This document shows, one piece after another, positions 2,791-54,587 of a DNA stretch of 64,000 nt; position 1 is the stretch's first letter; each line of letters starts with the position of its first letter. Below the pieces are notes generated by a model that was not told the origin of the DNA, made no database searches, and was given only the letters and a program-made list of their open reading frames with translations. Made by a program: the position numbers and the translations under genes. The stretch is taken from positions 64,220,221-64,284,220 of the forward strand of contig NC_069372.1 of the NCBI RefSeq assembly GCF_021730395.1, given 5' to 3'. The stretch is from Mercenaria mercenaria. Taxonomy: Eukaryota.

Positions 2791-4323
2791 CTAACCTATT
2801 AGATATGCACTCAACATATGAACACTGTTGAATCTATCCAACATACACACTATATTACCTATCCAGTATGTTCTTATTATGTGAAAACTAATTTACATAC
2901 CCAAACTGCACTGAATATATTTAGTTCAACGCTATTTAAGCTGTCAATGTACTGAATATATAATCAATCAGTCATGACTATACATGCTATATGAATGCTA
3001 TTTTACGAAACAGTATACATATCCACTGTACTGATTATGTGAGCGCTTTTAAATTTAACTTATCAAGTAAGAGTTGGATATATGAACACCATTTAACTTA
3101 TCCAATACCTAATAATTATATGAACACTTATCAAACCTATTCACAAATCCACAGTCTGTAATATGAACACCATGGTGCATTAACTTTCCAAAATATATTG
3201 AATGTACGTGCAAGCATCATTTAACTGTATAATATATACTGGATATCTGAATACTACTTACACTATCCAAAATGCACTAGAATCCCAAATGCACTAAAAA
3301 CAGGACAACTTCACATACCAATTTAGTATGAAGTATTTAAACACTATTTTACCAAACAGTATCCATTGTGCTCATGTGAAAACTGCTTTATGTAAAGTTC
3401 CGTAAGGCTTTAAATTCTATGTTAAAAATTGATGAAACAGCTTTCTAAATAATGTTTTGCATAATAATATGGTAAAAAACACTTCTTTTGCACATGACCT
3501 TGTACAGTTAGAACCTTAAAAGGTGGCAATCAAAAACAATGGATTCAATAATACTTTTCTACTAAGTTAACTCTTTCATTTTGACAAATATTTCCAAAAA
3601 TAATTGTCAAAAGTAGGATTTAAAAAGAAGTTATAATATTTTATGTTCACAGCATAAAAGATGGCGGCCACATTATACACAAAGTCATTGAGTCTTTAAT
3701 ATATCCATTACATGATGAAAATATGGACACCATTTTACACTGCACAAATACAATGAACACTAAATTTATTAATCCAATGTTTTGAATTTACAAACAACAT
3801 TTAATCTATTCAAAACATCATTTTACCTATCCAATATATACTTCTCATAAGAACACCTTTTCATCAAGTTTGCAAATTTTGATTCAAAAGAACACCATTT
3901 AATCTAGTCAAAATGAATTGAATATAAGAGTATGATTTAAACTGTCCAATATGTTTTGAATATACAAACATCATTTAACCTTAGAAATACATACTGAATA
4001 ATTATGAAAACTGTTAAACTGAATATATGGACATGTTTTAATTGAATTCACTCAATTTCTACTGAATATATGAAAAACATTTAACCAATCCAATATTTGT
4101 TGTTAAAAGTTGGAAACTTATTTAATCTTTCCAATATGTATTGATCATAACAGCATTTTTCAAACCTATTAAGTATCATTAGTATGTCATGAATATACAG
4201 GTTTCATTTAGCCTATCCAATAAGTACTAAATATAATGAATGTGAACATAACATAACATATCTTGTACTTTTTGAATATATAAACACTTTTCAACCCATA
4301 AAATATGTAAAGAATATAATTAT

Positions 4324-4557
4324 GAGCCACACCATAAGAAAACCAACATAGTGCATTTGCGACCAACATGGATCTAGACCAGCCTGCGCATCAGCGCAGT
4401 CTCATCAGGATCCATGCTGTTCGCTAACGGTTTCTCTAATTGCAATAGGCTTTGAAAGCAAACAGCATGGATCCAGACCAGCCTACGCATCCGCGCAGTC
4501 TGGTCAGGATCCATGCTGGTCACAAATGCATTACGTTGGTTTTCTCATAGTGTGGCT
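4324..4557. mobile_element. Palindromic (hairpin) MITE, copy 1: ~95-bp arms (gagccacaccataagaaaaccaacat...ggatccatgctg) around a ~40-bp loop
   Basis: Left and right arms are near-perfect reverse complements. A second copy lies at 53956..54190 with the loop in flipped orientation. Confidence 0.8.
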
Positions 4558-4668
4558 CAGTTATGATCAGTACCTATCTAATATATGCATTACAAATAGA
4601 TGAACACTACTTCAAATGACTAAAATGAACACTATGTGCAAATGAGTTGTGAAACCATAATAAATGGG

Positions 4669-9689: not shown

Positions 9690-11874
9690 TAGCTCCTTAC
9701 CAGGTAGAGATACCTTAAAATACACCTAAAATTGGAAAGTAACATCTATGTTGTACCACAGAAAAGTGGTCTTGTTTTTTCCCTACGGTCAATTATAAAA
9801 ATGTTACAATATAAGTTATTTATAGTAACAACTAAGGAAAGTTAATTTAAAAAAAAAAAAAAAATTGTAAATGCACACAAAAATCTTTACCAGGTAGAGA
9901 TTGGTCAAAATACACCTCAAAATTGGATGTAGCATGCATGTTGTACTACAAAAAAGTGGTCTCGATTTTTCCCTACGACTAGTAATGAAAAAGTTACAAT
10001 AAAAGCTATTTAAAGTAACAAAAAGGGAAGTAATTCTAAAGAAGGGAACTGCGCATGACACTTCGTCTCATGATGGTGTATAATTGTGCCAAGTTACATC
10101 AAAATCCCTCCATGCATGAAAAAGAAATGCTTCGGGCAAAGTCATTCTTGTATCTGACCTTTGGCCTCTGTGACCTTGACCTTAGACCTAGGGACCTGGA
10201 TCTTGCGCAAGACACTCCGTCTCGTGGTGGTGAACATTTGTGCCAAGTTATATCAAAATCCCTCTATGCATGATGAAGAAATGCTCCGGACAAGGTTTTC
10301 ATTCTTGTATCCTTTGACCTCTAAGTGTGACCTTGACCTTAGACCTAGGGACCCAGTTCTTGCGCATGACACTCCGCCTCGTAGTGGTGAACATTTATGC
10401 CAAGATATATCAAAATCCCTCTATGCATGAAGAAGATATGCTCCGGACAAAATTTTTTAAGAAAATATGATAAAGGGGAATAACTCAAAAAATAAGCAAA
10501 AAATAAGCAAGGTAGAGTTATTGTTCTTGCACACTGCACTTCCTCCCAATGTGTTCTATCAGTGTATGAAGTTTGAAGAAAATCCCTCCAGTACTTTTAG
10601 AGTCATGCTCCGGACAAAATTTTTTAAGAAAATAGGATAAAGGGGAATAACTCAAAAAATAGGCAAGGTAGAGTTATGTGTTCTATCAGTGTATGAAGTT
10701 TGAAGGAAATCCCTCCAGTACTTTTGGAGTTATGCTCCGGACAAAGATCGTTGCGCACGCACACACGCACGGACGGAGAGCATTTCTAAGATCCCCTTCG
10801 CCTTTGGCGGGGGGATAATAAAGGGAAAAGTGACCACTCCCCCTGGCAGCCATGTTTTTTGACGAATCAGAATAATTTGAACAATCTTGGTAGAAGGGCA
10901 CACAAGAACCATCTGTGTAAAATTATTTTAAAATCGGGCTAGCAGTTTCACACAAGAAGATTTTTGAAGTTTCCACTATATACATGTAGTGAAAAGTGAC
11001 TGCGCCCTCTGGCTGCCAAGTTTTTTGACAAATCAAAAATATTTGCACAATCTTGGTAGTGGGGCAAACAAGGACCATTTGCTTAAAATTATTTTAAAAT
11101 CGGACAAGCAGTTTCACACAAGACTTTTTTTTTAAATTTCCACTATATACATATAGAGAAAAGTGACTACGCCACCTGGCGGCCATGTTTTTTGACGAAT
11201 CAGAAAAATTTGAATAATCTTGGTAGAGGGTCACACAAGGACCATGTGCATAAAATTATCTTAAAAGCGGGCTAACAGTTTCACACAAGAAGATTTTTTA
11301 AATTTCCACCATATACATATAGGGAAAAGTGACCACACACTCTGGCGGCCATGTTTTTTGACGAATCAAAATAATTTGAACGATCTTGGCAGAGGGTCAC
11401 ACAAGGACCGTTTGCGTAAAATCATTTTAAAATTGGCCTAGCAGTTTCACACAAGAAGATTTTTTGATATTTCCACTATATACATATAGGGAAAAGTGAC
11501 CACGCCCCCTGGTGGCCATGTTTTTTGATGAATCAGTATAATTTGAAAACCTTGGTAGAGGGTGACCATTTGTGTGACATTATTTCAAAATCAGGCCATG
11601 GCTTTGGCTACCTATCTAACTTGGCCGAGGACTTACTGGCAAACACATTTTGTTCAAGTTAGGTGAAGATCGGATGAGAAATGTTCGACTTAAAGAGTGC
11701 GGACAAGTGTGTATGGAGCGATTTTCAGTAACTCGAGGGCCATAATTTCGAAATGCCTGTGCCGATTTTGCTCGTTATCGAACTTGGCCTTGGACTTATT
11801 GTCAAACACATTTTGTCCACGTTTGGTGAAGATCCGATGAGAAGTGTTTGACATAGAGCGTGGGCAAGATTTGT

Positions 11875-13599: not shown

Positions 13600-14220
13600 T
13601 TCTACTGTCCTGGATCAATGTGACCTTTGACCTTAAAATCTATAGGGGTCGTCTGCTGGTCATGATCAACCTCCCTATCAAGTTCGTGGTCATAGACCCA
13701 AGCATTCTCAAGTTATTGTCCGGAAACCATTTAACTGTTCCGAGTCACTGTGACCTTGACCTTTGGCCTACTGACCTCAAAAGCAATAGGGGTCATCTGC
13801 TGGTCATGACTAACCTCTCTATCAACATCCATCATCCTAGACCCAAGTGTTCTGGAGTTATCATCTGTAAACTGTTTAACTGTTCTGACCTCAAAATCAA
13901 CAGGGGTCATCTGCTGGTCATGACCAACCAACTTTCAACCTCCCTATCAAGTTTTGTGGTCATAATAGGCACAAGCGTTCTCAAGTGGGGTCATCTGCTG
14001 GTCATGATGAACCTCCCTATCAACTTTCATGATCCTAGGCCCAAGTGTTCTCAAGTTATCGTCTGGAAAAGGTTTAATTGTTCCGGGTCACTGTGACCTT
14101 GACCTTTGACCTACTGATCTCAACCTCAATAGGGGTTATCTGCTGGTCATGACCAACCTCCCTATTTACTTTCATGATCCTAGGCCCAAGCGTTCTTGAG
14201 TTATCATCCAGAAACGGATT
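13600..14220. repeat. Tandem array B, ~120-bp unit (caggggtcatctgctggtcatgaccaacctccctatcaa...gtgaccttgacctttggcctactgacctcaa)
   Basis: About 5 units seen directly. ORF 13446..14096 (216 aa) is a periodic translation of this array. An inverted partner lies at 33770..34200. Confidence 0.85.
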
Positions 14221-14269
14221 GGTCTACATACCAACAGACATCTTCAAAGGGGAGCATAAAAAGAGCTGT

Positions 14270-15310
14270 CACAGGAGACAGCGCGCTTGACTATTTCGAT
14301 GCTGGATAGTGAAACTGGGCACATTTGATGAAGCTGGAGCTGTCACTTGGGTGTTTAATGACTCCAACATGGATGAAATATTGGATAATAGCTTGAGTCT
14401 GTGTCAAAAGTATTAAGTAATAAGAGAGATAAGGATCAAGTGTATCAAAACATTAGATATTATTATGTATAATTCTTAGCAAAAAGGGGGCATAATTCAT
14501 GAAATACTGGTGCAACAGTGATGCACCTTGTGTAATGTTGAATCAAATCCATTTTGTAATAACTTAAGATATAGAGAAAATGCATCAAAATTAACCTTTA
14601 ACTCTTAAGTAAAAGGGGCATAATTCATGAAAATTTTGTGCCAGAGTTATGGACCTTGTGTCATATGATGTGGGTGATAAGGTGGAACAACTGTTTTAAG
14701 TTTGAATCAAATCCATTTAGTAATAACTGAGATAGAGTGAAAGTGCATCATAACTATAAGTAAAATAGAGGATAATTCATGATATAATAGTGCAAGAGTT
14801 ATGGCCCTTGTGTCATATGATGTGAGTGATGATGTTGAACAACTATTTAAGTTTGAATCAAATCCATTTAGTAATAACTGAGATAGAGTTAAAGTGCACC
14901 AAAACTTTAACCTGAAATTCTAAGTAAAAAGGGGGGAATAAATCATGAAATATTGGTGCCAGAGTTATGACCTTTGTGCCTGCCATATGATGTGGGTGAT
15001 GATGTTGAACAACTATTTTAAGTTTGAATCAAATCCATTTAGTAATAACTGAGATAAAGTGAAAGTGCACCAAAACTTTAACCTGAAATTCTAAGTAAAA
15101 AGGGGGGATAATTCATGAAATATTGGTGCCTTGTGTCATATGATGTGGGTGATGATGAGGAACAACTATTTTAAGTCTGAAGTAAATCCATCAAGTAATA
15201 ACAAAGATAAAGAGAAAGTGCATCAAAACTTTAACCAAAGTGCAGACGCAGAAGGACGTGGACGCCGACGCCAGGTCGAGTAGGATAGCTCTCCATACTT
15301 CGTAAAGTCG
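14270..15310. mobile_element. Composite element family, copy 3: left terminus + 5 tandem ~165-bp units (aaaaggggcataattcatgaaatattggtgccagagttatgg...tttgaatcaaatccatttagtaataactgagata) + right terminus (gacgcagaaggacgtggacgccgacgcc...tcgagctaaaaag)
   Basis: Termini are shared with 610..1600. The internal satellite is a different variant from copy 1. One isolated unit of this satellite also sits at 11960..12090. Confidence 0.75.
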
Positions 15311-23879: not shown

Positions 23880-24860
23880 GGCTACCTTAGCAACAGACCA
23901 CAGCAAGTGCTGGTAGATGGAAAATCATCCAAGCCTGCCCCCGTGACCTCTGGCGTTCCCCAGGGCACAGTTCTCGGCCCTTTGCTGTTTCTTGTCTACA
24001 TCAATGACATGCCCGGCAAGGTCAGCTCACCGTGCAGACTGTTTGCTGATGACTCACTACTTTACCGAGTGATAAAGGCAGAAACAGATTCCACAGCCCT
24101 TCAGGATGACCTTGACCGCTTGCAGGAATGGGAGAAAACCTGGCTGATGGAGTTCAACCCAGACAAATGCGAGGTGGTGCGATTTTCAAGTAAACGAAGA
24201 ACATACAGGCATCATGCTTCATCCATGGTAAAGAATTACGGACCATCAAAAAGGCAAGGTACCTTGGCGCCACACTTTCTGATAACCTCTCAAGGAACAA
24301 TCATATTTACACAATCTGCTGCAAGGCAAACAACACCATTGCCTTCCTCAGCCGAAACATGTCTTCCTGCCCCAAGACCATCAAGGAGGCTAGCTACAAA
24401 ACATACGTAAGACCACAAGTGGAATACGCACCCACCATCTGGGACCCATACACCCAAGCCAATGAGACTAAAGTTGAAGCAGTTCAACGACGAGCCACCA
24501 GATATATATCTGGAGATTATTATCAAAGGAGCAGCGTTACTGCCATGCTTGACACACTCGGCTGGGAACCACTACAGATCAGGAGAAAGCAGGCCAAGGC
24601 TGTCGTGTTGTCCAAGAGACCCTTACCTGAAACCTCAAGGATCTTCCACGAGGGGCCACTCAATGCAATTTGTTGTTCCTTTCTGCCACATGAACGCCAT
24701 GAAAGAGTCCTTCTTCCCGTCCGCCATCGCACTGTGGAACAGACTCCCTGACAGTCTGGTCTCGGCACCCACCTTGGAAGCATTCAAGGCCGGGATCTCT
24801 AAAACAACACTCTAAGCCGACTGAAAATAGTTTTCTCCTGTTTTTAACCTTGGGTACCCT
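23880..24860 (+). mobile_element. 5'-truncated, frameshifted non-LTR retrotransposon (LINE) fragment: RT domain (SGVPQGTVLGPLLFLVYINDMP...LFADDSLLY...) plus C-terminal region, spread across three overlapping frames
   Basis: ORFs 23907..24410, 24359..24751 and 24462..24815 together align to the intact-looking RT at 30055..31551. FADD motif present. A (GAA)n stretch follows at ~24940. Confidence 0.85.
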
Positions 24861-25079: not shown

Positions 25080-25700
25080 GTGGTAGCTGCCCAGCAAATA
25101 CTTCTAAGCTGGGACTAGCTTGCAAAGCCACAGGGAGACTGTTCCACAGACGTATGCTTCTGGGAAAGAAGGAGTTTGTGTCTTTGAATATGGTATCAAA
25201 TAGTTCAAGTTTCTAGTATGTCTAAGGTGACTGTGGTCAACAAAAACAAGGTGTTGTTGGATCTTGTACAACGTTACATAATAACTGCGCTGATCTTACG
25301 GCGTTGTTCTAGGGTTTGCCAGTTTAGTTCATTTAACATTTTGGAGACACTACTGGTGTAATTGTAGTCATCATAGACATATCTTGCTGCAGATCTTTGA
25401 ACTTGCTCTAGTTTATGGGTTAGGTATTTTTGCCATGGATGCCATATGGTGGAACAGTACTCTAACTGGGGTCTAACATAGGTTTTATATGCAACCTCTT
25501 TGACTCTTTTATTTGAGGTTTTGACATTTCGTTTGAGGAATCTTAGGGATTGTTTTGCTTTGGATATTTCGTTGTTGATATGATTGGTCCATGATAGGTC
25601 TTTACTAATGATTACGCCTAAATATTTGGCAGAATCAGCCGATTTTAACTCGATGTCATGCAGCTTATAAGGGAAGATTACGGGGTTTCATTTGCGACTG
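25080..25700 (-). mobile_element. Non-LTR retrotransposon 3' fragment, same family as the 30055 copy. Minus-strand translation: YKLHDIELKSADSAKYLGVIISKDLSWTNHINNEISKAKQSLRFLKRNVKTSNKRVKEVAYKTYVRPQLEYCSTIWHPWQKYLTHKLEQVQRSAARYVYDDYNYTSSVSKMLNELNWQTLEQRRKISAVIM*
   Basis: Hand translation of the reverse complement of 25260..25690. It is near-colinear with residues 300..440 of ORF 30055..31551. Confidence 0.8.
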
Positions 25701-29242: not shown

Positions 29243-29315
29243 AGCCGTTTAGCTCAGTGGGTAGCGCACTTGCTTTGTAAGCGAGAGGTCCCGGGTTCGA
29301 GCCCTGGATTAAATG
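29243..29315 (+). tRNA. tRNA-Thr(TGT)-like sequence, probably a pseudogene or SINE/MITE-borne. D-arm, anticodon arm (loop TTTGTAA) and T-arm (GGTTCGAGCC) are recognisable, but the acceptor stem (AGCCGTT / ATTAAAT) does not pair.
   Basis: Manual cloverleaf parse. It sits at the centre of an inverted repeat (29050..29080 ttatatagaattcaatctgactaaagtac vs 29470..29500). Confidence 0.4.
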
Positions 29316-29899: not shown

Positions 29900-31715
29900 T
29901 TTTTGATTTTGATGTTGACAACGCATATTTTTTTTTTCAGTCTCAGCAGTGCCGGACTCTACTGTATAGGATTGAATCTGTTTTTTCCCGTCCACAACCA
30001 CTCAGCCTTAAGCAACTATCGAAAAGTGCAGCCTCCACTCCTACCCACCCGCCTATGTCTCCAATAAGTATAAGTGTCGAAGGTGTAGACAAACTACTTC
30101 TAGGTTTAAACCCGCATAAGGCATCAGGGCCAGATGAAATCTCACCCAGGTTACTTAAAGAACTACATAATGAAATTGCCCCTCTTCTAACAGTCATCTT
30201 CCAGCGGTCACTTGAAACTGGCATTATTCCGAACGACTGGAAACATGCGGTCATAGCACCAGTTTTCAAAAAAGGTCAGAAATCTAAACCCAGTAATTAT
30301 AGGCCCATCTCCCTGACTTGTATAGCATCCAAATTATTAGAGCATATACTAGTCTCCAACATAATGTCATACTTCGACAAGAACAACGTCCTTAGCCCAC
30401 AACAACATGGTTTCAGGTCAAAACATAGTTGTGAGACCCAACTCATAGGTTTTACCCAAGAAATAGCAGATAATCTTGAAAAAGGTCAACAAACTGATGT
30501 AATTATTATGGATTTTAGTAAAGCCTTCGACAAAGTAGATCATCATAAACTGATTCACAAACTCAAATACCTAGGTATTAATAATAAGGTCACCGCATGG
30601 GTTAAGTCATTTCTCAGTAACAGATCTCAGAAAGTCCTTGTTGAGGGTAAAGTCTCTGAAAGGTTACCTGTCCTATCAGGGGTCCCCCAAGGCTCAGTCC
30701 TTGGCCCCTGCCTATTTCTCGCCTACATAAATGACTTGCCCAATAGTATCAAAAGTCGAGCCCGTCTCTTTGCTGATGACACCATTGTCTACCTTACCAT
30801 CAAATCTAAATCCTCTGCAGAAAGCTTACAGCAAGACCTCTACTGTTTAGAAAAATGGGAAAAAGAATGGTCAATGGAATTTAATCCCGATAAATGTGAA
30901 GTTCTTAGAATATATCGTAAAAGAAATCCTGTTATATATCCTTACACCCTACATAATGTCCAACTTCAGTCCACTGACCATGCAAAATATCTTGGTGTTA
31001 CCCTAAATAATAACTTGACCTGGTCAAATCACATAAATAACATAACATCCAAGGCCAGTAATACCCTTCGCTTCATCAAAAGGAATGTAAAGACTACCAA
31101 CAGACAGGTTAAAGAAATGGCCTACAAAACCTATGTCCGCCCCCAGGTCGAGTACTGTTCCACGGTCTGGCACCCCTGGCAAAAATATCTAACTCATAAA
31201 GTAGAAAGGGTACAAAGATCTGCAGCCCGCTATGTTTTTAATGACTACCAGTATACCAGTAGCGTCTCAGATATGTTATCTGAACTAAATTGGAAGACCC
31301 TAGAACAAAGAAGAAATCATTCCTCCCTGGTTATTTTCTATAAGATAAGAAATGAATTAGTGGCTGTGGACCATCATCATCTCACACAGACACGAAATTT
31401 AAATTACTTAATTCCCCAGTCCAAAACGTCGTACCATGCAAATTCCTTTTTCCCCAGGACTATCAGACTATGGAACAGTTTACCAACATATATCCAGTCC
31501 AGTCCCAATTTGCAGACATTTGTCAGCGGGCTGGACTCGCAGTCTCTCTAAATACTATAATCCGCTGATTTTAAACTGTATACTTTGGGTCTTTTATCTT
31601 TTTAATTTTGCACATAACATTTTTACTAAAACACTGTTTCCTGACAGCGCCTGCCAGTCATAATCGCTAGACGATTGTTCGGCAGTAGATAGTTGAAGTT
31701 GAAGTTGAAGTTGAA
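29900..31715 (+). mobile_element. 5'-truncated non-LTR retrotransposon (CR1/L2-like by domain layout: RT + C-terminal extension, no endonuclease) with a (GTTGAA)4 3' tail at 31690..31715
   Basis: A long ORF with RT motifs. A microsatellite 3' terminus is typical of CR1/L2-type LINEs. The clade assignment is an inference. Confidence 0.75.
30055..31551 (+). CDS. Reverse transcriptase ORF (498 aa) of the LINE copy. Motifs NYRPISL, FDKVDH, SGVPQGSVLGP, LFADD, plus a C-terminal YKTYVRPQVEYCSTVW...FFPRTIRLWNSLP domain
   Basis: ORF track plus motif reading. There is no upstream endonuclease domain, so this is an incomplete element. Confidence 0.85.
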   Translation: MSPISISVEGVDKLLLGLNPHKASGPDEISPRLLKELHNEIAPLLTVIFQRSLETGIIPNDWKHAVIAPVFKKGQKSKPSNYRPISLTCIASKLLEHILVSNIMSYFDKNNVLSPQQHGFRSKHSCETQLIGFTQEIADNLEKGQQTDVIIMDFSKAFDKVDHHKLIHKLKYLGINNKVTAWVKSFLSNRSQKVLVEGKVSERLPVLSGVPQGSVLGPCLFLAYINDLPNSIKSRARLFADDTIVYLTIKSKSSAESLQQDLYCLEKWEKEWSMEFNPDKCEVLRIYRKRNPVIYPYTLHNVQLQSTDHAKYLGVTLNNNLTWSNHINNITSKASNTLRFIKRNVKTTNRQVKEMAYKTYVRPQVEYCSTVWHPWQKYLTHKVERVQRSAARYVFNDYQYTSSVSDMLSELNWKTLEQRRNHSSLVIFYKIRNELVAVDHHHLTQTRNLNYLIPQSKTSYHANSFFPRTIRLWNSLPTYIQSSPNLQTFVSGLDSQSL

Positions 31716-31978: not shown

Positions 31979-32339
31979 GAATAAGTATGGAGACTGAATT
32001 AAAAGATAGATCTAGTCTATATTGAATTTATTATAATTTAGGGGGAATTTTGTTTAAAGAAAGACTTCTGGAGTCTTAAGTGATAGAAATTCAGACTCCT
32101 GTGCTTATATTAACAGATTATCTGTTTTATTTATGACGTTAACTATAGATCTTATACTGATCCAGGATATCAATTATCATTATAGTATAAGTGTCTCATT
32201 GTTCATAAAAACACCATCACCATGATATTTTATAGAGGAGAGCAAATTTTTCACCCTTGCCTGGCTTTTATATTAAGCCTTTAAGGGATTTTACATTTTT
32301 TTCCATTAATGTATGACTCACTGGATTCAGCCAAGATTA

Positions 32340-32860
32340 TTCACACATCCTTGGCTCAGTCGCCAACTTGAGCATCATTGGCCCGGGCCAGGCACCGGGG
32401 GCTCACTCAGGCATCAGTAGCCTTGGCACTTGGGGGTATCTGTGGCTCAGGCACCCTGGCTCACTGAAGCATTGGTGACTCATGCACCCGGGCTCACTCA
32501 GTCATTGGTGGCTCAATCACCCAGGCTCTCTTGGGCATAGGTGACTCTCACTCTGGCATTGGCATCTGGGGTCACTTGGGCGTCAGTGGCCAAGGCACCT
32601 AGGGTTCACTCAGCAAATACGGCCCAGACACCCAGGTTTACTCAGGCATCAGTGGCCTAGGCACCCAGGCTCACTCGGGCATCGTTAGCTCAGGCACCTG
32701 GGCTAACTCTGGAATCTGTGGCCCAGGCACCAGGACTGACTCGGACATTGATCAGGCATCCAGACTCACTCAGACATTGGTGGCTCAGACAGCCTGGCTC
32801 ACTCAAGCAATGGTAATTTGGGTACCTGGGCTCACTGAGGCATGGATAGCTCAACCACGA
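32340..32860. repeat. Minisatellite, ~42-bp unit (ggctcactcaggcatcagtggcctaggcacccag), ~12 units
   Basis: Direct periodicity. ORF 32690..32872 is spurious. Confidence 0.9.
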
Positions 32861-34959: not shown

Positions 34960-36171
34960 ACCGGCTGCCAGAGCAAAAAATATTTATACATTGTATTGTG
35001 CCTTTTTATACGCCCGTTTGAAAAATGGGTCGTATTATGGGAACGCCCCTGGCGGGCGGATGGGCGGGCGGGCGGGCGGGCGGGCGGCGTCCACAGACCT
35101 TGTCCGGAGCATATCTTCTACATGCATGGAGGGATTTTGAAGAAACTTGGCACAGTTGTTCACCATCATGAGACGGAGTGTCATGCGCAAGAACCAGGTC
35201 CCTAGGTCTAAGGTCAAGGTCACACTTAGAGGTCAAAGGTCAAATTCAAGAATGGCTTTGTCCGGAGCATATCTTCTTCATGCATGGAGGGATTTTGATG
35301 AAAGTTGGCACAATTGTTCATCATCATGAGACGGAGTGTCATGCGCAAAAGCCAGGTCCCTAGGTCTAAGGTCAAGGTCACACTTAGAGGTCAAAGGAAA
35401 CAAGAATGAAAAATTCAAGAAAGACTTTGTCCGGAGCATATCTTCTTCATGCATGGAATGATTTTGATGTAGCTTGGCACAGTTGTTTACCATAATGAGA
35501 GGGAGTGTCATGCGCAAGAACCATGTCCCTAGGTCTAAGGTCAAGGTCACACTTAGAGGTCAAAGGATACAAGAATGAAAACTTTGTCCGGAGCATATCT
35601 TCTTCATGCATGAAAGGACATTGATGTAGCTTGGCAAAATTGTTCACCATCATGAGACGGAGTGTCTTGCGCAAGAACCAGGTCCCTAGGGGTAAGGTCA
35701 AGGTCACACTTAGAGGTCAAGGATACAAGAATGAAAACTTTGTCCGGAGCATTTCTTCTTCATGCATTGAGGGATTTTGATACAACTTGGCACAAATGTT
35801 CACAAGCATGAGACGGAGTGTCATGCGCAAGAACCAGGTCCCTCGGTCTAAGGTCAAGGTCACACTTAAAGGTCAAAGGTCAGATACAAGAATGACTTTG
35901 TCCGGAGCATTTCTTCTTCATGCATGGAGGGATTTTGATGTAACTTGGCACAATTGCACACCATCATGAGATGGAGTGTCATGCACTAGTCCCTTCTTTT
36001 GAATTACTTCCCTTTGCTGTTACTATAAATAGCTTATATTGTAACTTTTTCATTACAAGTTGTAGGGAAAAATCGAGACCACTTTTCTGTAGTACAACAT
36101 GCATGTTACGTCCAATTCTGAATTGTATTTTGAGCTATCTCTACCTGGTAAGGATTTTTGTATGGACTTGT

Positions 36172-41309: not shown

Positions 41310-41498
41310 GTAAGTTAACTTTGAAATATGTTAGTGAAAAAGTATATTTGTAAGATTCATATGTTAGGGTTTTAGTTCACGTTGACTGTTTTGTAATCTC
41401 AATTCTTTTTCATCAAAGGTTCAACATAGGCCTAACATGCACTTTTCATTTTACATTTTATACTTTATTCTATTCCTTTTGTTCATTTGCCTACACAG

Positions 41499-41633
41499 GT
41501 TTGCTATTTCTATTGGTTACTATGGTTTGACATGGCGACTGACCAGTCTCCCTGGAAACAAGTATTTGAACTTCTTCATTGCTGGATGTGTGGAGTTTGT
41601 GGCTTATACTTTAGTCATCTATATAACCAAAAG
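41499..41633 (+). CDS. SLC22 transporter exon 6 (W)FAISIGYYGLTWRLTSLPGNKYLNFFIAGCVEFVAYTLVIYITK
   Basis: YYGL...GNxYLNF motif. Splice sites ctacacag| and aaag|gtaaaa. Confidence 0.85.
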
Positions 41634-41689
41634 GTAAAATACCCATGCAGTCAGTTATGTAGTTAAACTAAGATGAATTTATTTAATTT

Positions 41690-41900
41690 TAAACCGGAAT
41701 CGCCTTTCCTGTCATCCGTCCCGAAAGGCCGTCGCCTCGGGAACCCCGGTCGGATGGCTCCTGGAGGGGAACTGGTTACCCACTGCTCGGACTGTCTCGG
41801 GCTGGGAAGACCCGCAATCGCGCCGTGCAACCGCCACCCGTGTGGGTCGATGATGCCACGGCCTAGGTCGGCGGGTCCCGTTTTGATCAGGAAACATGTG
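41690..41900. other. 210-bp GC-rich island (~65% GC) inside the AT-rich intron 6 of the transporter gene, with multiple short hairpins (cgggaaccccg, cgggctgggaagacccg, acccgtgtgggt). Nature unknown.
   Basis: Sharp compositional discontinuity seen directly. ORFs 41673..41918(+) and 41712..41897(-) both cross it, but no protein homology was recognised. Confidence 0.4.
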
Positions 41901-42219
41901 CTGTTAAATTTGGGCTGAAAAGTAATCCTTGCATTTACACAAAGTCATAAGTACTTAATAGCATTCACACATGATTTCTTATTTTGAATTTAAGATTTTG
42001 TCATTGTGGCCACTGTTCTAAACAATTGAAAAATGCTATACATTTTTCTTGCGTTTGAATATTTCAGTATTTTCAGATTGTATATTAATTAACAGATTTT
42101 AAACAACACCCAAGTTTCATGAATTGAATTCTTGTAGCATAAAAGAGACGATCAGTTATGCCAGTTAAACATTAGAGAAATGAAAAAATGTTTAAAAGTT
42201 TTTATATGAAATATTTCAG

Positions 42220-42420
42220 GTTTGGGCGTAAGAAGCCCCTGCTGACCTATTTTATGCTTGCCTCCCTGTTCATGATCGGGGCAGGTGTTGTGCCCCTTGC
42301 ACTGAAGAACGTCAGCGTGTATGTAACAAGCGGGCTGGCTATTGCCGGAAAATTTGCCATGGGTGGTCTCTTCAGTGTGATCTTCCTGTACACATCAGAG
42401 CTCTACCCTACCATTGTAAG
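42220..42420 (+). CDS. SLC22 transporter exon 7 (R)FGRKKPLLTYFMLASLFMIGAGVVPLALKNVSVYVTSGLAIAGKFAMGGLFSVIFLYTSELYPTIV
   Basis: ELYPT signature. Splice sites atatttcag| and aag|gtgagt. Confidence 0.9.
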
Positions 42421-42659
42421 GTGAGTCTTGCTAATATCTCTACCCTCCAGTTTAACATTTTTACCTTGACCAAGAAACCTGTAGAAATATATATTTTTGT
42501 AAATGGAAAATTATGTTTTATCACAGTGCAGTATTGGGAAATTCCTAACATGACAGCACTCATCAATATGTTGTATTTTTCTGCTATTTTAAAGTTAACT
42601 AGGTGAATGCATGTTTGTTGATACAGAAATGTATGAGATGATATTTTTCCTGTTTTCAG

Positions 42660-42732
42660 AAATATTGGCATGGGAAGTTGTGCTTTCTGGACAAGAGTTG
42701 GAGGAGTTATAGCACCTCAGATTATTGTTCTG
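42660..42732 (+). CDS. SLC22 transporter exon 8 (R)NIGMGSCAFWTRVGGVIAPQIIVL
   Basis: RNxGxG...GGIIxP motif. Splice sites ctgttttcag| and ctg|gtaaga. Confidence 0.85.
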
Positions 42733-43070
42733 GTAAGATACATGCTTGGGTGAAGGTTTAAGCACCTTCTTCTTGGTCCATTAATATACTCTAACACAAT
42801 CTACTAATTGACCTAGATGTAAGACTGCAAATTCTTATCCATGTACAGATAATGTCTTAAGATACTACATTTCTTTGTTAAATAATAATTAGCTGGCTTT
42901 TATGGCTTTGGTTGTATTACCTGCAAATAGGGGACATTTTCAATCTTTCAGATTTAAATTATGTCTTTTCACTTCTATTGGCATTCTTTATCAGTGATTA
43001 TATAATCAATTTACTTTGCATTAGACATCCATTTGGTATAAAACTTTTTAGGAGAGAAATTGTTCTGTTG

Positions 43071-43589: not shown

Positions 43590-44120
43590 TTTATTTCTAT
43601 AATTTACATAGATTTATATAGGGAAAAACTTTGAAAATCTTCTTGCCCAAAACCACAGAGCCTAGGGCTTTGATATTTGGTATGAAGCATCATCTAGTGG
43701 TCCTCTACCAAGATGATTCAAATTATTTCCCTGGGGTCTAATATGGCCCCGCCCCGGGGGTCACATGGTTTATATAGACTTATATAGGGAAAAACTTTGA
43801 AAAACCTCTTGTCCAAAACCACAGGGCCTAAGGCTTTGATATTTTGTATGTGACATCATCTAGTGGTATTCTACTAAGATTATTCAAATTATCCCCCTAG
43901 GGTCAAATATGGCCCTGCCCCGGGGGTCACATGGTTTACATAGACTTATATAGGGAAAACTTTGAAAATCTTCTTGTCCAAACCACAAAGCCTAGGGCTT
44001 TGATATTTGTAATGTAGCATCATCTAGTGGTTTTCTACCAAGTTTGTTAAAATTATCCCCCTAGGGTCAAATATGGCCCCGCCCTGGTGGTCACATGGTT
44101 CATATAGACTTATATAGGGA
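43590..44120. repeat. Intronic tandem array, ~175-bp unit (catagacttatatagggaaaaactttgaaaatcttcttg...ccaaaaccacagagcctagggctttgatatttg...ggccccgccccgggggtcacatggtt), ~3 units
   Basis: Direct periodicity. Preceded by a tccgtccgtcc-rich leader at 43370..43450. Confidence 0.85.
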
Positions 44121-44149
44121 AAAGTTTTTAAAAACTTCTTGTCAATAAC

Positions 44150-45410
44150 CTACAACATTCAGATTTGGACCACATGTATGGTTTTGAGTGGCAAGATGAA
44201 CCTTGACATGAGTTGACCTTGATTTTGACCTAGTGACCTACTTTCACATTTCTGTAGCTACAGCCTTCAAATTTGGACCACATGCATAGTTTTGTGCACT
44301 GAAATAAACTTTGACCTTGACATTGACCTAGTGACCTACTTTCACATTTTTGAAGGTACAGGCTTCAAATTTTGACCACATGCATAATTTCTTGTTCCAA
44401 AATGAAATTTGACCTTGATTTTGACCCAGTGACCTACTTTCACATTTCTCAAGCTGCAGCCTTCAAATTTGGACCACATGCATGGTTTATGTACCGAAAC
44501 AAACTTTCACCTTTGAAAACTGAAACTGAAACTGGTTTATTTGCTTAAACGCCTATTTCTACATTTAAAACATATTCAATGGCGTTTTACAATACAAGTT
44601 GAAATAAAATATTAAATATAAAATATTTTAAATAAGATTAATTAAAACGAATCAAAATAGCAATTATTAATTTAAAGTCAATGATAATACTATATTTTAA
44701 AATATTACTAACATACAATTACACCTTTACATTGACCTGGTGACCTACTTTATCATTTTTGAAGGTACAGGCTTCGAATTTGGACCATATGCATAGTTTT
44801 GTATTCCGAAATAAAATTTGACCTTCATTTTGACCTAGTGACCTACTTTCACATTTCTCAAGCTATAGCCTTCAAATTTGGACCACTTGCATAGTTTTGT
44901 GTACCGAAATGAACTTTGACCTTAAGATTGACCTAATGACCTACTTTCACATATCTGTAGCTACAGGCTTCAAATTTAGACCACATGAATAGGATTGTGT
45001 ACCGAAACAAACTTTGACATTGACCTAGTGACCTACTTTCACATTTTTGAAGGTACAGGCTTCAAATTTGGACCACATGCGTAGATTGGTGTTCTGAAGT
45101 GAAATTTGACCTTGATTTTGACCTAATGACCTACTTTCACATTTCTCAAGCTACAGCCTTCCGATTTGGACCACTTGCATAGTTTTGTGTACCGAAATAA
45201 ACTTTGATCTTAAGATTGACCTAGTGACCTACTTTCCAATTTCTCAAACTACAGTCTTCAAACTTGATGCACATGCATAGTTTTGTGTACAAACCACTTT
45301 GTCCTTGAAATTGATCTAGTGACCTACTTTCACATTTGTCAAGCTACAGCTTTCGAATTTAGACCACATGCACAGTGTTGTGTACGGAAATGAAATTTGA
45401 CCTTGAGCTA
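44150..45410. repeat. Intronic tandem array, ~115-bp unit (gaccacatgcatagttttgtgtaccgaaataaactttgaccttgacattgacctagtgacctactttcacatttctcaagctacagccttcaaatttg), ~10 units, with one ~150-bp AT-rich interruption at 44560..44720
   Basis: Direct periodicity. Confidence 0.9.
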
Positions 45411-45498
45411 ATCAGTAAGTCTTGAAATTTGGAACACACAAAAATGGCACATTGGTGGGCGCCAAGATCACTCTGTGATCTCTTGTTTGTTTTTGCAG

Positions 45499-45720
45499 GA
45501 TCACTTCAGCAACAAGTCTATGCCTCTCATCCTGTTTGGACTGGTTACTCTAATTGGTGGATTCCTCACAATCTTGCTCCCAGAGACGCTTGGTCGCAAG
45601 CTTCCAGACAACATTGATGATGTAGAGCAGTCTGGTTCCCATGACAACATAGTGAATGGAGAGGAGATGAAATCTCTGAATTCCAATCCAGATCATGATG
45701 CCAAACAAGAAAATGTGTAA
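45499..45720 (+). CDS. SLC22 transporter last exon (DHFSNKSMPLILFGLVTLIGGFLTILLPETLGRKLPDNIDDVEQSGSHDNIVNGEEMKSLNSNPDHDAKQENV*)
   Basis: LPET.G..LP..I.D.E C-terminal signature. Acceptor tttttgcag|ga, stop TAA at 45718..45720. The total CDS is 558 aa. Confidence 0.85.
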   Translation, partial: DHFSNKSMPLILFGLVTLIGGFLTILLPETLGRKLPDNIDDVEQSGSHDNIVNGEEMKSLNSNPDHDAKQENV

Positions 45721-47679: not shown

Positions 47680-48690
47680 TTGAAAAAAAATGATGAGTTA
47701 TTGTCATCACTTGAGCGGTTGTCGGCGTCGGCGTCTGCGTCGGCGTTGCCTGGTTAAGTTTTATGTTTAGGTCAGCTTTTCTCCTAAACTATCAAAGCTA
47801 TTGCTTTGAAACTTGGAATACTTGTTCACCATCATAAGCTGACCCTGTATAGCAAGAAACATAACTCCATCTTGCTTTTTGCAAGATTTATGGCCCCTTT
47901 TGTACTTAGAAAATATCAGATTTCTTGGTTAAGTTTTATGTTTAGGTCAACTTTTCTCCTAAACTATCAAAGCTATTGCTTTGAAACTTGGAATACTTGT
48001 TCACCATCATAAGCTGACCCTGTACATCAAGAAACATAACTCCATCTTGCTTTTTGCAAGATTTATTGCCCCTTTTGGACTTAGAAAATCAGTTTTCTTG
48101 GTTAAGTTTTATGTTTAGGTCAGCTTTAATCCTAAACTATCAAAGCTATTGCTTTAAAACTTGCAACACTTGTTCACCATCATAAGTTGACCCTGTACAG
48201 CAAGAAACATAACTCCGTCCTGCTTTTTGCAAGATTTATGGCCCCTTTTGGACTTAGAAAATATCAGATTTCTTGGTTAAGTTTTATGTTTAGGTCAACT
48301 TTTTCTCTTAAACTATCAAAGCTATTGCTTTGAAACTTGCAACACTTGTTCCCCATCATAAGCTGACCCTGTACAGCAAGCAACATAACTCCATCCTGCT
48401 TTTTGCAATAATTATTGCCCCTTTTGGACTTAGAAAATCATTTTCTTGGTTGAGTATTATGTTTAAGTCAACTTTTCTCATAAACTATCAAAGCTATTGC
48501 TTTAAAACTTGCAACAGTTTTTCACCATCATAAGTGGACACTGTACATCAAGAAACATAACTCTATCCTGCTTTTTGCAAGAATGATGGCCCTTTTTAGA
48601 CTTAGAAAATCATGGGTAGGACAATATTTCTATTACACTAAAAAAAATCAGATGAGCGTCAGCACCCGCAAGGCGGTGCTCTTGTTGATT
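47680..48690. mobile_element. Composite element family, copy 4 (inverted orientation): the right terminus is the reverse complement at 47690..47750 (gagcggttgtcggcgtcggcgtctgcgtcggcgttgcc), then 5 tandem ~160-bp units (cttggttaagttttatgtttaggtcagcttttctcctaaactatcaaagctattgctttgaaacttg...), then the reverse complement of the left terminus at 48640..48690. Short inverted ends agctcatctgatttttt / aaaaaatcagatgagc.
   Basis: Terminus comparison with 610..1600. The internal satellite is unrelated to copies 1 and 3. ORFs 47806..48012 and 48330..48533 are repeat translations. Confidence 0.65.
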
Positions 48691-53580: not shown

Positions 53581-53955
53581 GTTTTTCCAGGAAGCGGACT
53601 CGAGAGTGGTTCCAATAAGCTTGAAGCTTTCATCACAATCGAGCTAAAACAAAACAAATTCGTATACACTAAATTTATGCGCAATAAAACTCGGCAAAAC
53701 AAATAATTTCTATCGGTATACGTATACAAAAATAAAATGTAGTGAAAATTACCATTTTATATAACATTGCATGACAAAAAGACAATATGTTTTAATTGCC
53801 CCTCCTTGTATAACTGATGTTGTTCTTTAATAATCATAATGTCATTCTCTTTTAATTAATTGTGTATTGTGTGGATGTTATGTATACGTGTGACTTTGAT
53901 ATATGATATTTTTGTTTAAGGATGAAGAGCGTAAGCTAACGTCTAAAAAAGATTT

Positions 53956-54190
53956 GAGCCGTGCCATGAGAAAACCAACATAATGGGTGTGCGACCAGCA
54001 AGGATCCAGACCAGCCTGCGCATCCGCGCAGTCTGGTCAGGATCCATGCTGTTCGCTTTTAAAGCCTATTGGAATTGGAGAAACTGTTAGCGAACAGCAT
54101 GGATCCTGACCAGACTGCGCGGATGCGCAGGCTGGTCTGGATCCATGCTGGTCGCACACCCACTATGTTGGTTTTCCCATGGCACGGCTC
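53956..54190. mobile_element. Palindromic hairpin MITE, copy 2. Arms are near-identical to copy 1 (4324..4557). The central loop is the reverse complement of the copy-1 loop.
   Basis: Arms ggatccagaccagcctgcgcatccgcgcagtctggtcaggatccatgctg present in both copies. Loop gcttttaaagcctattggaattggagaaactgttagc is the reverse complement of gctaacggtttctctaattgcaataggctttgaaagc. Confidence 0.85.
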
Positions 54191-54587
54191 ATTTGTTCTC
54201 ATCAGTGTTTGTTGTTCTGTATAATTAAGCGGTGTATAAGTAAGTGCTTGCCTTTGGCCTGAACTAAAGAGAGTAGTAACACACACAACATGATCATAGG
54301 CAGTATTTCGGTCTTTTTTTCACACCAGTAAAATGATTTACCTTCACCATTTACGCTGAAGTGTCTTGCACTGCAAAGTATGATACAAAATAGTATCCCA
54401 ATTTTCCTGAAAGATCTTCAGTGGCCGTCTCCTAACTTTAAAGTTTGTTATCTCACATGCTTTGTGATAAAATGGGAAAAGAAAAGAAAATGTTTGGGTA
54501 ATCAATTTAATCTTTATTTAAGTCATCTTTTAATGTAAACATTTATTACAGCTTTTAATTACAATGTTATTGTAGCCACACAGAGTT

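Follow-up and report, generated by a model that had tools for sequence, protein, structure and literature searches.

A probable displaced fragment of the ITS1 spacer within a mollusc gene for an SLC22-like transporter, in one of its introns

In the human genome, dispersed and degraded fragments of ribosomal DNA (rDNA), including pieces of its spacers, have been described as 'rDNA-like signal' or rDNA orphons (Robicheau et al. 2017, PMC5381670). A second group of displaced sequences is that of the class 2 templated sequence insertions, which are attributed to the 'patch' repair of double-strand breaks (DSBs) (Onozawa & Aplan 2016, PMC5110952). In yeast, furthermore, fragments of rDNA, of mitochondrial DNA and of Ty elements have been found to be captured at induced breaks by NHEJ (PMC11372161). 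In this paper, we describe a short GC-rich island in an intron of a mollusc, probably a bivalve, within a stretch of 64 kb that was analysed as a whole and is called the window below. The island is a fresh instance of the already known dispersed and decaying rDNA fragments. We put at roughly 0.8 the probability that it is a non-functional, displaced piece of the ITS1 spacer, which would have come from the host's own rDNA and have been captured during break repair, the mechanism being the weakest link of this reading.

Like the human rDNA fragments, the island is a piece of the 45S unit that includes spacer, lies far from rRNA genes, and appears to have escaped concerted evolution and to be decaying to the background. 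Unlike them, it is short, internal to ITS1, single within the 64 kb and located in a mollusc intron, whereas the human fragments are mostly larger, often lie near centromeres and often include IGS. With the class 2 insertions it shares a short copy from a distant locus and the lack of a target-site duplication (TSD), of poly(A) and of transposon sequence; on the other hand, that class was defined on human polymorphisms with known empty alleles, whereas the island is known from the filled allele alone. The captures in yeast and the NUMTs are similar in that abundant or unstable DNA serves as break filler, that the inserts measure tens to hundreds of bp and that rDNA is an observed donor, but the yeast events are experimental somatic repair, whereas the island would reflect an event that took place in an animal germline in the course of evolution, and we liken it to NHEJ products only because the hallmarks of retroposition are absent. 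LINE retrocopies and the class 1 insertions, finally, have in common with the island a donor that is an abundant transcript and a possible TTTT/A site next to an A-rich 3' end, but the poly(A) tail and the TSD that define them are missing here.

The host intron and the homology of the island to ITS1

The island lies in an intron of a gene for an SLC22-like transporter. The relevant features are the following, with positions counted in the window and a slash marking each boundary.

41499..41633, plus strand: exon upstream of the host intron, in the gene for the SLC22-like (MFS/Sugar_tr) transporter; tblastn match to protein P0001 with 91% identity over 41500-41634
41634..42219, plus strand: host intron, GT..AG, 586 bp; splice sites read AAAAG/gtaaaa ... 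tttcag/GTTTGG
41684..41697, no strand: left junction (3' end when the insert is read in ITS1 sense), TAATTTT/AAACCGG, compared with the reverse complement of contig L002
41688..41893, minus strand as the ITS1 sense strand: probable rDNA ITS1-derived insert, 206 bp, on the basis of phmmer and blastn homology
41888..41899, no strand: right junction (5' end when the insert is read in ITS1 sense); homology ends after ...GATCAGGAA
42220..42420, plus strand: downstream exon of the SLC22-like gene; tblastn matches over 42218-42421 to P0001 (75%) and P0002 (54%)

The exons on either side of the island continue one gene in the correct order, and the island is inserted antisense to this gene. The homologues of the host gene carry the Pfam families PF00083/PF07690 (precomputed), and among those with a name the closest, at 51% identity, is a protein from the scallop Mizuhopecten yessoensis (P0002), 'Solute carrier family 22 member 5'. 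The sole close homologue, a transcript contig (L001, Logan SRR23477413) with 78% nucleotide identity to the host gene, is spliced and intron-less. The intron flanks of the island are unique within the window, and without the insert the intron would be ~380 bp long.

The initial annotation had singled out this place as an isolated block of ~65% G+C in an AT-rich intron, and this description is borne out. The block is sharply bounded, and by homology it spans 41688-41893, i.e. 206 bp with a GC content of 0.636, while its intron flanks have GC contents of 0.25 and 0.275 and the intron around it is ~73% A+T. When the whole window was scanned in 200-bp windows with 20-bp steps, the GC maximum, 0.65, was found in the one starting at 41701; as the mean of the 64 kb is 0.36 with a standard deviation of 0.068, the island peak stands at about +4.3 standard deviations. 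The observed/expected ratio of CpG is 1.03-1.06 in the island versus 0.55 across the window, which indicates that the host genome is CpG-depleted and the island is not. A GC- and CpG-rich islet that stands alone in an AT-rich and CpG-depleted intron of an invertebrate may be no more than stray rDNA spacer.

The identity of the island came from a translated search. When its stop-free minus-strand frame was compared by phmmer with 1.84 billion representative proteins, there was one match, P0003, with 80% identity and an E value of 2.7e-20, and the same match was found again when the search was repeated. P0003 is a 78-aa ORF at 2367-2603 of a metagenome contig of 3758 bp (L002; JGI 3300018036, Ga0181600_10029281), on which Rfam places the 18S rRNA at 419-2243, the 5.8S rRNA at 2919-3072 and the start of the 28S rRNA at 3438. 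Since P0003 falls between the 18S and the 5.8S, it is a spurious ORF inside ITS1 (2244-2918). At the nucleotide level, blastn aligns window positions 41893-41688 with positions 2406-2599 of this contig, i.e. with nucleotides 163-356 of the 675 of ITS1, with an E value of ~1e-65. The alignment has 206 columns with 18 mismatches and one 12-nt indel, and the identity is 85.4% overall and 90.7% without the indel. On the strength of this homology, it is nearly certain that the island derives from ITS1. The island is an rDNA-derived pseudogene fragment outside the rDNA array and without adjoining rRNA genes: a scan of all 64 kb with Rfam at the gathering scores detected no rRNA gene, and when all the fetched rDNA units were compared with the window by BLAST, they matched only 41688-41893.

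Without the spurious ORFs that gene callers place on rDNA, the island would not have been identified. To our knowledge, neither Rfam nor the protein-centred resources contain ITS sequences. Translating non-coding DNA and searching it against ORF libraries is thus a usable route to ITS fragments. Protein databases hold a number of 'hypothetical proteins' that are spurious ORFs of 18S, ITS1 and 28S and amount to annotation noise; examples are P0003 itself, P0004/P0005 (18S, including the UniRef entry K1QT15_MAGGI) and KAH3829318.1 of Dreissena polymorpha.

The ORFs in the island had also been noticed before, as lying on both strands and bearing no recognisable protein motif, and we found the same. 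They are 55-81 aa long, and a Pfam search of all six frames of the island returned nothing significant, the sole family listed having an E value of 0.21 and a score of 11.7 bits against a cut-off of 22.6. These ORFs are an expected by-product of a GC content of 64%. Furthermore, the GC content is flat across the codon positions in every frame (0.63-0.69), which argues against an origin of the island as a piece of high-GC coding sequence. A recent insertion of horizontal or organelle origin, which the initial annotation had listed among its candidates, found no support either. A blastn search of the island against plasmids gave nothing, and that against phages gave only two chance matches of 26-29 nt (E 0.7); a protein word-index search with the 68-aa translation of the plus strand gave nothing; and peptide-seeded scans with the plus-strand frame yielded no confirmed relative among viral genomes, bacterial and archaeal genomes and JGI metagenome contigs. 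The only relatives found are metazoan rDNA contigs. Six loci that were returned by an exact 20-mer scan of metagenome contigs (L003-L008) were discarded, as they are chance matches of 20-25 nt and contain no rRNA.

Junctions and the route of insertion

At the left junction, TTTAAACCGG is common to ITS1 and the boundary is uncertain by ~4 nt; up to ~6 nt of A/T-rich sequence there could be microhomology. At the right junction the bases past the end of homology are ACATGT in the window versus CGGAAC in ITS1, and there is no A- or T-run. No TSD was found at the junctions: the flanks, TTTAATT on the left and ACATGTGC on the right, have no direct repeat in common, and the sole likeness between them is imperfect, AT-rich and 11 nt away. 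There is no poly(A) tail either, as the insert ends with ...CCGGTTTAAA, which is itself ITS1 sequence. The island thus has the lack of a TSD, the lack of poly(A) and the donor from a distant locus that characterize class 2 templated insertions and NHEJ filler, and it has neither the TSD nor the 3' poly(A) of the class 1 insertions and LINE retrocopies.

We propose that ~206 bp from the middle of ITS1 may have been captured as filler during the end-joining repair of a chromosomal double-strand break, in a manner comparable to NUMTs and 'class 2' templated insertions. The donor would be the host's own rDNA array, although the nearest ITS1, which is 91% identical, comes from an environmental contig. 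End-joining capture is suggested by the lack of a poly(A) tail, of a TSD and of flanking mobile-element sequence. Having left the homogenising array for a gene body that is CpG-depleted and presumably methylated, the insert would have decayed by CpG-to-TpG/CpA and AT-ward substitutions (see below).

The insert may also have been made from RNA, which we consider possible but rather unlikely. A fragment of pre-rRNA or of excised ITS1 would in this case have been reverse-transcribed by a LINE-type reverse transcriptase (RT), in a way resembling the class 1 insertions, whose criteria have been set out (PMC5110952): priming would have occurred at a TTTT/A nick on an internal UUUAAA tract and been followed by 5' truncation, so that the insert would be a retroposed pol I transcript. 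ITS1 does belong to an extremely abundant nuclear transcript, and the RT ORFs of the window (30055-31551 and 23907-24410) indicate that the genome carries retroelements. Furthermore, the left junction, ...AATTTT/AAACCGG, also reads as a TTTT/A site that abuts the A-rich 3' end of the insert, as LINE-type target-primed reverse transcription (TPRT) would give. However, at ~73% A+T an intron will often contain a TTTT/A motif by chance; poly(A) tail and TSD are both missing, and a fragment internal to ITS1 has no polyadenylation signal. We have therefore ranked capture at the DNA level by NHEJ ahead of TPRT. It is also conceivable that pol I spacer RNA serves as a substrate for RT-mediated break repair in the bivalve germline. 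These observations also bear on an earlier suggestion that the block had been retroposed as a piece of some GC-rich RNA, for instance an rRNA expansion segment or an snRNA. It was right in that the source is an rDNA unit, but the piece belongs to the ITS1 spacer and to neither of the RNAs named, and it shows no poly(A) tail or TSD that would speak for retroposition.

Reference rDNA contigs, donor lineage and substitution pattern

The contig that gave the match, L002, turned out to be chimeric, the rDNA of two animals being joined inside the conserved 18S. Its nucleotides 1-1769, i.e. the 5' ETS and most of the 18S, have two differences from the oyster-like rDNA contigs L009-L018, the 18S ORF of which clusters with Magallana gigas K1QT15. 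From ~1770 on, there are 94 differences from these contigs in ~490 nt, and the 5.8S and 28S are 88% and 79% identical, respectively. The breakpoint lies ~470 nt upstream of ITS1, and the oyster-like 5' part was rejected as a guide to the donor of ITS1, being on the other side of it.

The ITS1 part of the contig is reproduced in independent assemblies. In L020 (ENA ERZ27313042), the same 3' end of the 18S is followed by an ITS1 whose first 360 nt are identical, and which consequently matches the island in the same way; L020 itself appears to be mosaic too. Two further contigs, of a related taxon, are L019 (ENA ERZ925704, project PRJEB15404) and L042 (ENA ERZ1644695), the former from a hypersaline-lagoon biofilm microcosm (PMC12872022). 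The 3' end of their 18S (474 nt in L019; 205 nt covered in L042) is identical to that of L002 and L020, and so is the 5.8S, while the 5' end of the 28S is 97.8% identical. Their ITS1 has diverged but is co-linear, and 81 nt in its core show 80-83% identity to the island. With the surroundings of ITS1 recurring in L020, L019 and L042, the assignment of the island to ITS1 stands in spite of the chimeric nature of L002.

ITS1 is a fast-evolving sequence. The next relatives, which include GCA_029935875.1, GCA_029940505.1 and GCA_013565695.1, are still 97-98% identical in the 3' region of the 18S, and their ITS1 can no longer be aligned with the island. An identity of 91% in ITS1 therefore implies a close relative, and the comparison points to a donor closely related to the organism that contributed the ITS1-bearing part of L002. 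In addition, the 28S ORF of the next relatives clusters with an ORF of Dreissena polymorpha, which weakly supports a bivalve affinity of the donor lineage, as would fit the bivalve-like host gene. The island is also a caution that nuclear pseudogene fragments of ITS can be picked up in ITS-based barcoding and metabarcoding.

The differences between the island and L002 are directional. At 7 of the 18 mismatches a CpG of ITS1 stands against TpG or CpA in the island, and the reverse does not occur (0; binomial p = 0.016); likewise, 12 differences are AT-ward in the island versus 2 that are GC-ward (p = 0.013). When L019 and L042 were used as outgroups in the reliably aligned core, six changes fell on the branch of the island and 2-3 on that of L002, and all four polarisable CpG losses fell on the former, a branch that also holds the species divergence between the host and L002. 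Such a loss of CpG and AT-ward bias fits decay after the fragment had left a homogenised, GC-maintained array, although part of it may represent the difference between the ITS1 of the host and that of L002. The island would provide a clean and datable case of rDNA-to-euchromatin transfer in a mollusc, and in combination with the ITS1 of the host and data on methylation it could serve to calibrate the decay of CpG within gene bodies.

Could the island instead belong to a dispersed repeat family (a SINE, a MITE or a satellite monomer) that also occurs in, or is derived from, ITS1? The window is indeed very rich in repeats and tandem arrays; however, we consider this very unlikely. The island occurs once in the 64 kb, even when searched with a word size of 7, and it lacks a tRNA, 5S or 7SL head as well as terminal inverted repeats, a TSD and a tail. 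Moreover, four rDNA contigs carry the homologous sequence as an integral and co-linear portion of ITS1 that diverges in step with the remainder of the spacer, and nothing but rDNA ORFs matched it among the 1.84 billion proteins, a library that includes spurious ORFs from eukaryote assemblies.

It seems just as improbable that the island is an artefact of sequencing or assembly, i.e. that a chimeric read or a mis-join has placed rDNA, from the host or from a contaminating animal, in the intron. rDNA is of very high copy number and a frequent partner in chimeric reads, and the metagenome rDNA contigs that we fetched are demonstrably chimeric. Nevertheless, the insert is short and lies cleanly within one intron, with the exon order correct on both sides. 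Its directional CpG-decay and AT-ward differences, which would suit an old resident, argue against a fresh assembly chimera, an argument weakened by the fact that the reference is another species.

An origin from the rDNA of another bivalve is hardly more than conceivable. It would have required introgression through a hybrid or the horizontal transfer of nuclear DNA, for example from transmissible cancer cells or from ingested or parasitic tissue. That the best match is an environmental rDNA contig with just 91% identity might be taken to favour it; however, we found no positive evidence for it, no source of such sequence in the nucleus comes close in abundance to the host's own rDNA, and the relatives of the island are metazoan and, to judge from the clustering of the 28S ORF with Dreissena polymorpha, bivalve-like, which fits a bivalve host.

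Folding of the island and other features of the window

The initial annotation had called the block hairpin-dense and had considered that it might be a structured ncRNA hosted by the intron. The three hairpins it had quoted do exist, at 41738, 41798 and 41836, but their density is no greater than the composition predicts. The MFE of the 206-nt RNA is no better than that of dinucleotide shuffles on the plus strand (z = -1.00, with 32 of 200 shuffles as good), and there is no excess stability on the minus strand (z = -0.52). The island contains 6 perfect 4-bp stems versus 7.7 +/- 3.4 expected, and no 5-bp stem versus 2.0 expected. The complete ITS1 of L002 (675 nt, 2244-2918), on the other hand, is strongly structured, with an MFE of -316.8 kcal/mol and z = -4.25. 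The possibility that the island corresponds to a discrete helix domain of ITS1 was rejected, as the ends of the fragment cut through helices in the MFE structure of the full spacer.

A covariance-model search against Rfam yielded no credible family for the island even at E <= 10. In the region 41400-42200 there were only three sub-threshold matches, none of which is centred on the island, and the best of them reached 19.7 bits against a gathering score of 100 bits (E 0.57) and lies mostly outside it. ARAGORN detected no tRNA-like head in the island down to -ps80; at -ps70 and with the mitochondrial model it made only unconvincing calls, one of them, at -ps70, with an 'intron' of 129 nt.

Nothing suggests a function of the island: its high GC and CpG contents, like its short hairpins and stop-free frames, came with the spacer, and none of them is a sign of function at this locus. 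That it has been exapted from the spacer as a functional intron-hosted ncRNA or a regulatory CpG islet is the least probable reading. The island does formally pass simple CpG-island thresholds (206 bp, GC 0.64, o/e 1.06) and the complete ITS1 of L002 is strongly structured, but the fragment folds like its shuffles on either strand, its boundaries cut predicted helices, Rfam offers no credible match and the CpG sites appear to be lost rather than kept. With its homology to a transcribed spacer and its antisense orientation to the host transcript, it can be removed from the candidates for a 'novel intronic ncRNA'.

Apart from the island, the window contains a number of repeats and retroelement copies. 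The RT ORF at 30055-31551 (plus strand) is 498 aa long and has a full reverse-transcriptase domain (RVT_1, E 9e-40), and the one at 23907-24410 (plus strand) is partial (E 1e-12); both are retroelement copies upstream of the SLC22-like gene. Two arms of 394 nt, at 25304-25697 and 30915-31308, are 71% complementary. The only match of the gathering scan of the whole window with Rfam is a weak tRNA match at 29249-29308 (plus strand), with 34.3 bits against a gathering score of 29, which ARAGORN did not call; located just upstream of an RT ORF, it may represent either the head of a tRNA-derived SINE or a tRNA that has degraded.

The second GC-richest region, 32300-32860 (GC 0.56-0.61), is a minisatellite with a period of 33 bp (repeat family D11) and has no relation to the ITS1 insert. 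Many tandem arrays, of periods ~98 and 150-176 bp, are found at 703-1499, 10015-11616, 13628-15239, 35097-35984, 43650-45407 and 47746-48651, and they resemble the MITE- or Helitron-like elements with satellites that are common among bivalves. Of the SLC22-like exons, those at ~42640-42740 and ~45487-45705 are separated by a long intron that consists mostly of tandem repeats of 164-166 bp and 98 bp (43650-45407). Finally, the arrays at 9.6-10.5 kb and 35.1-36.4 kb are mutual inverted copies (83-93% complementary), and the segments 4322-4559 and 53955-54192 are likewise inverted copies of one another.
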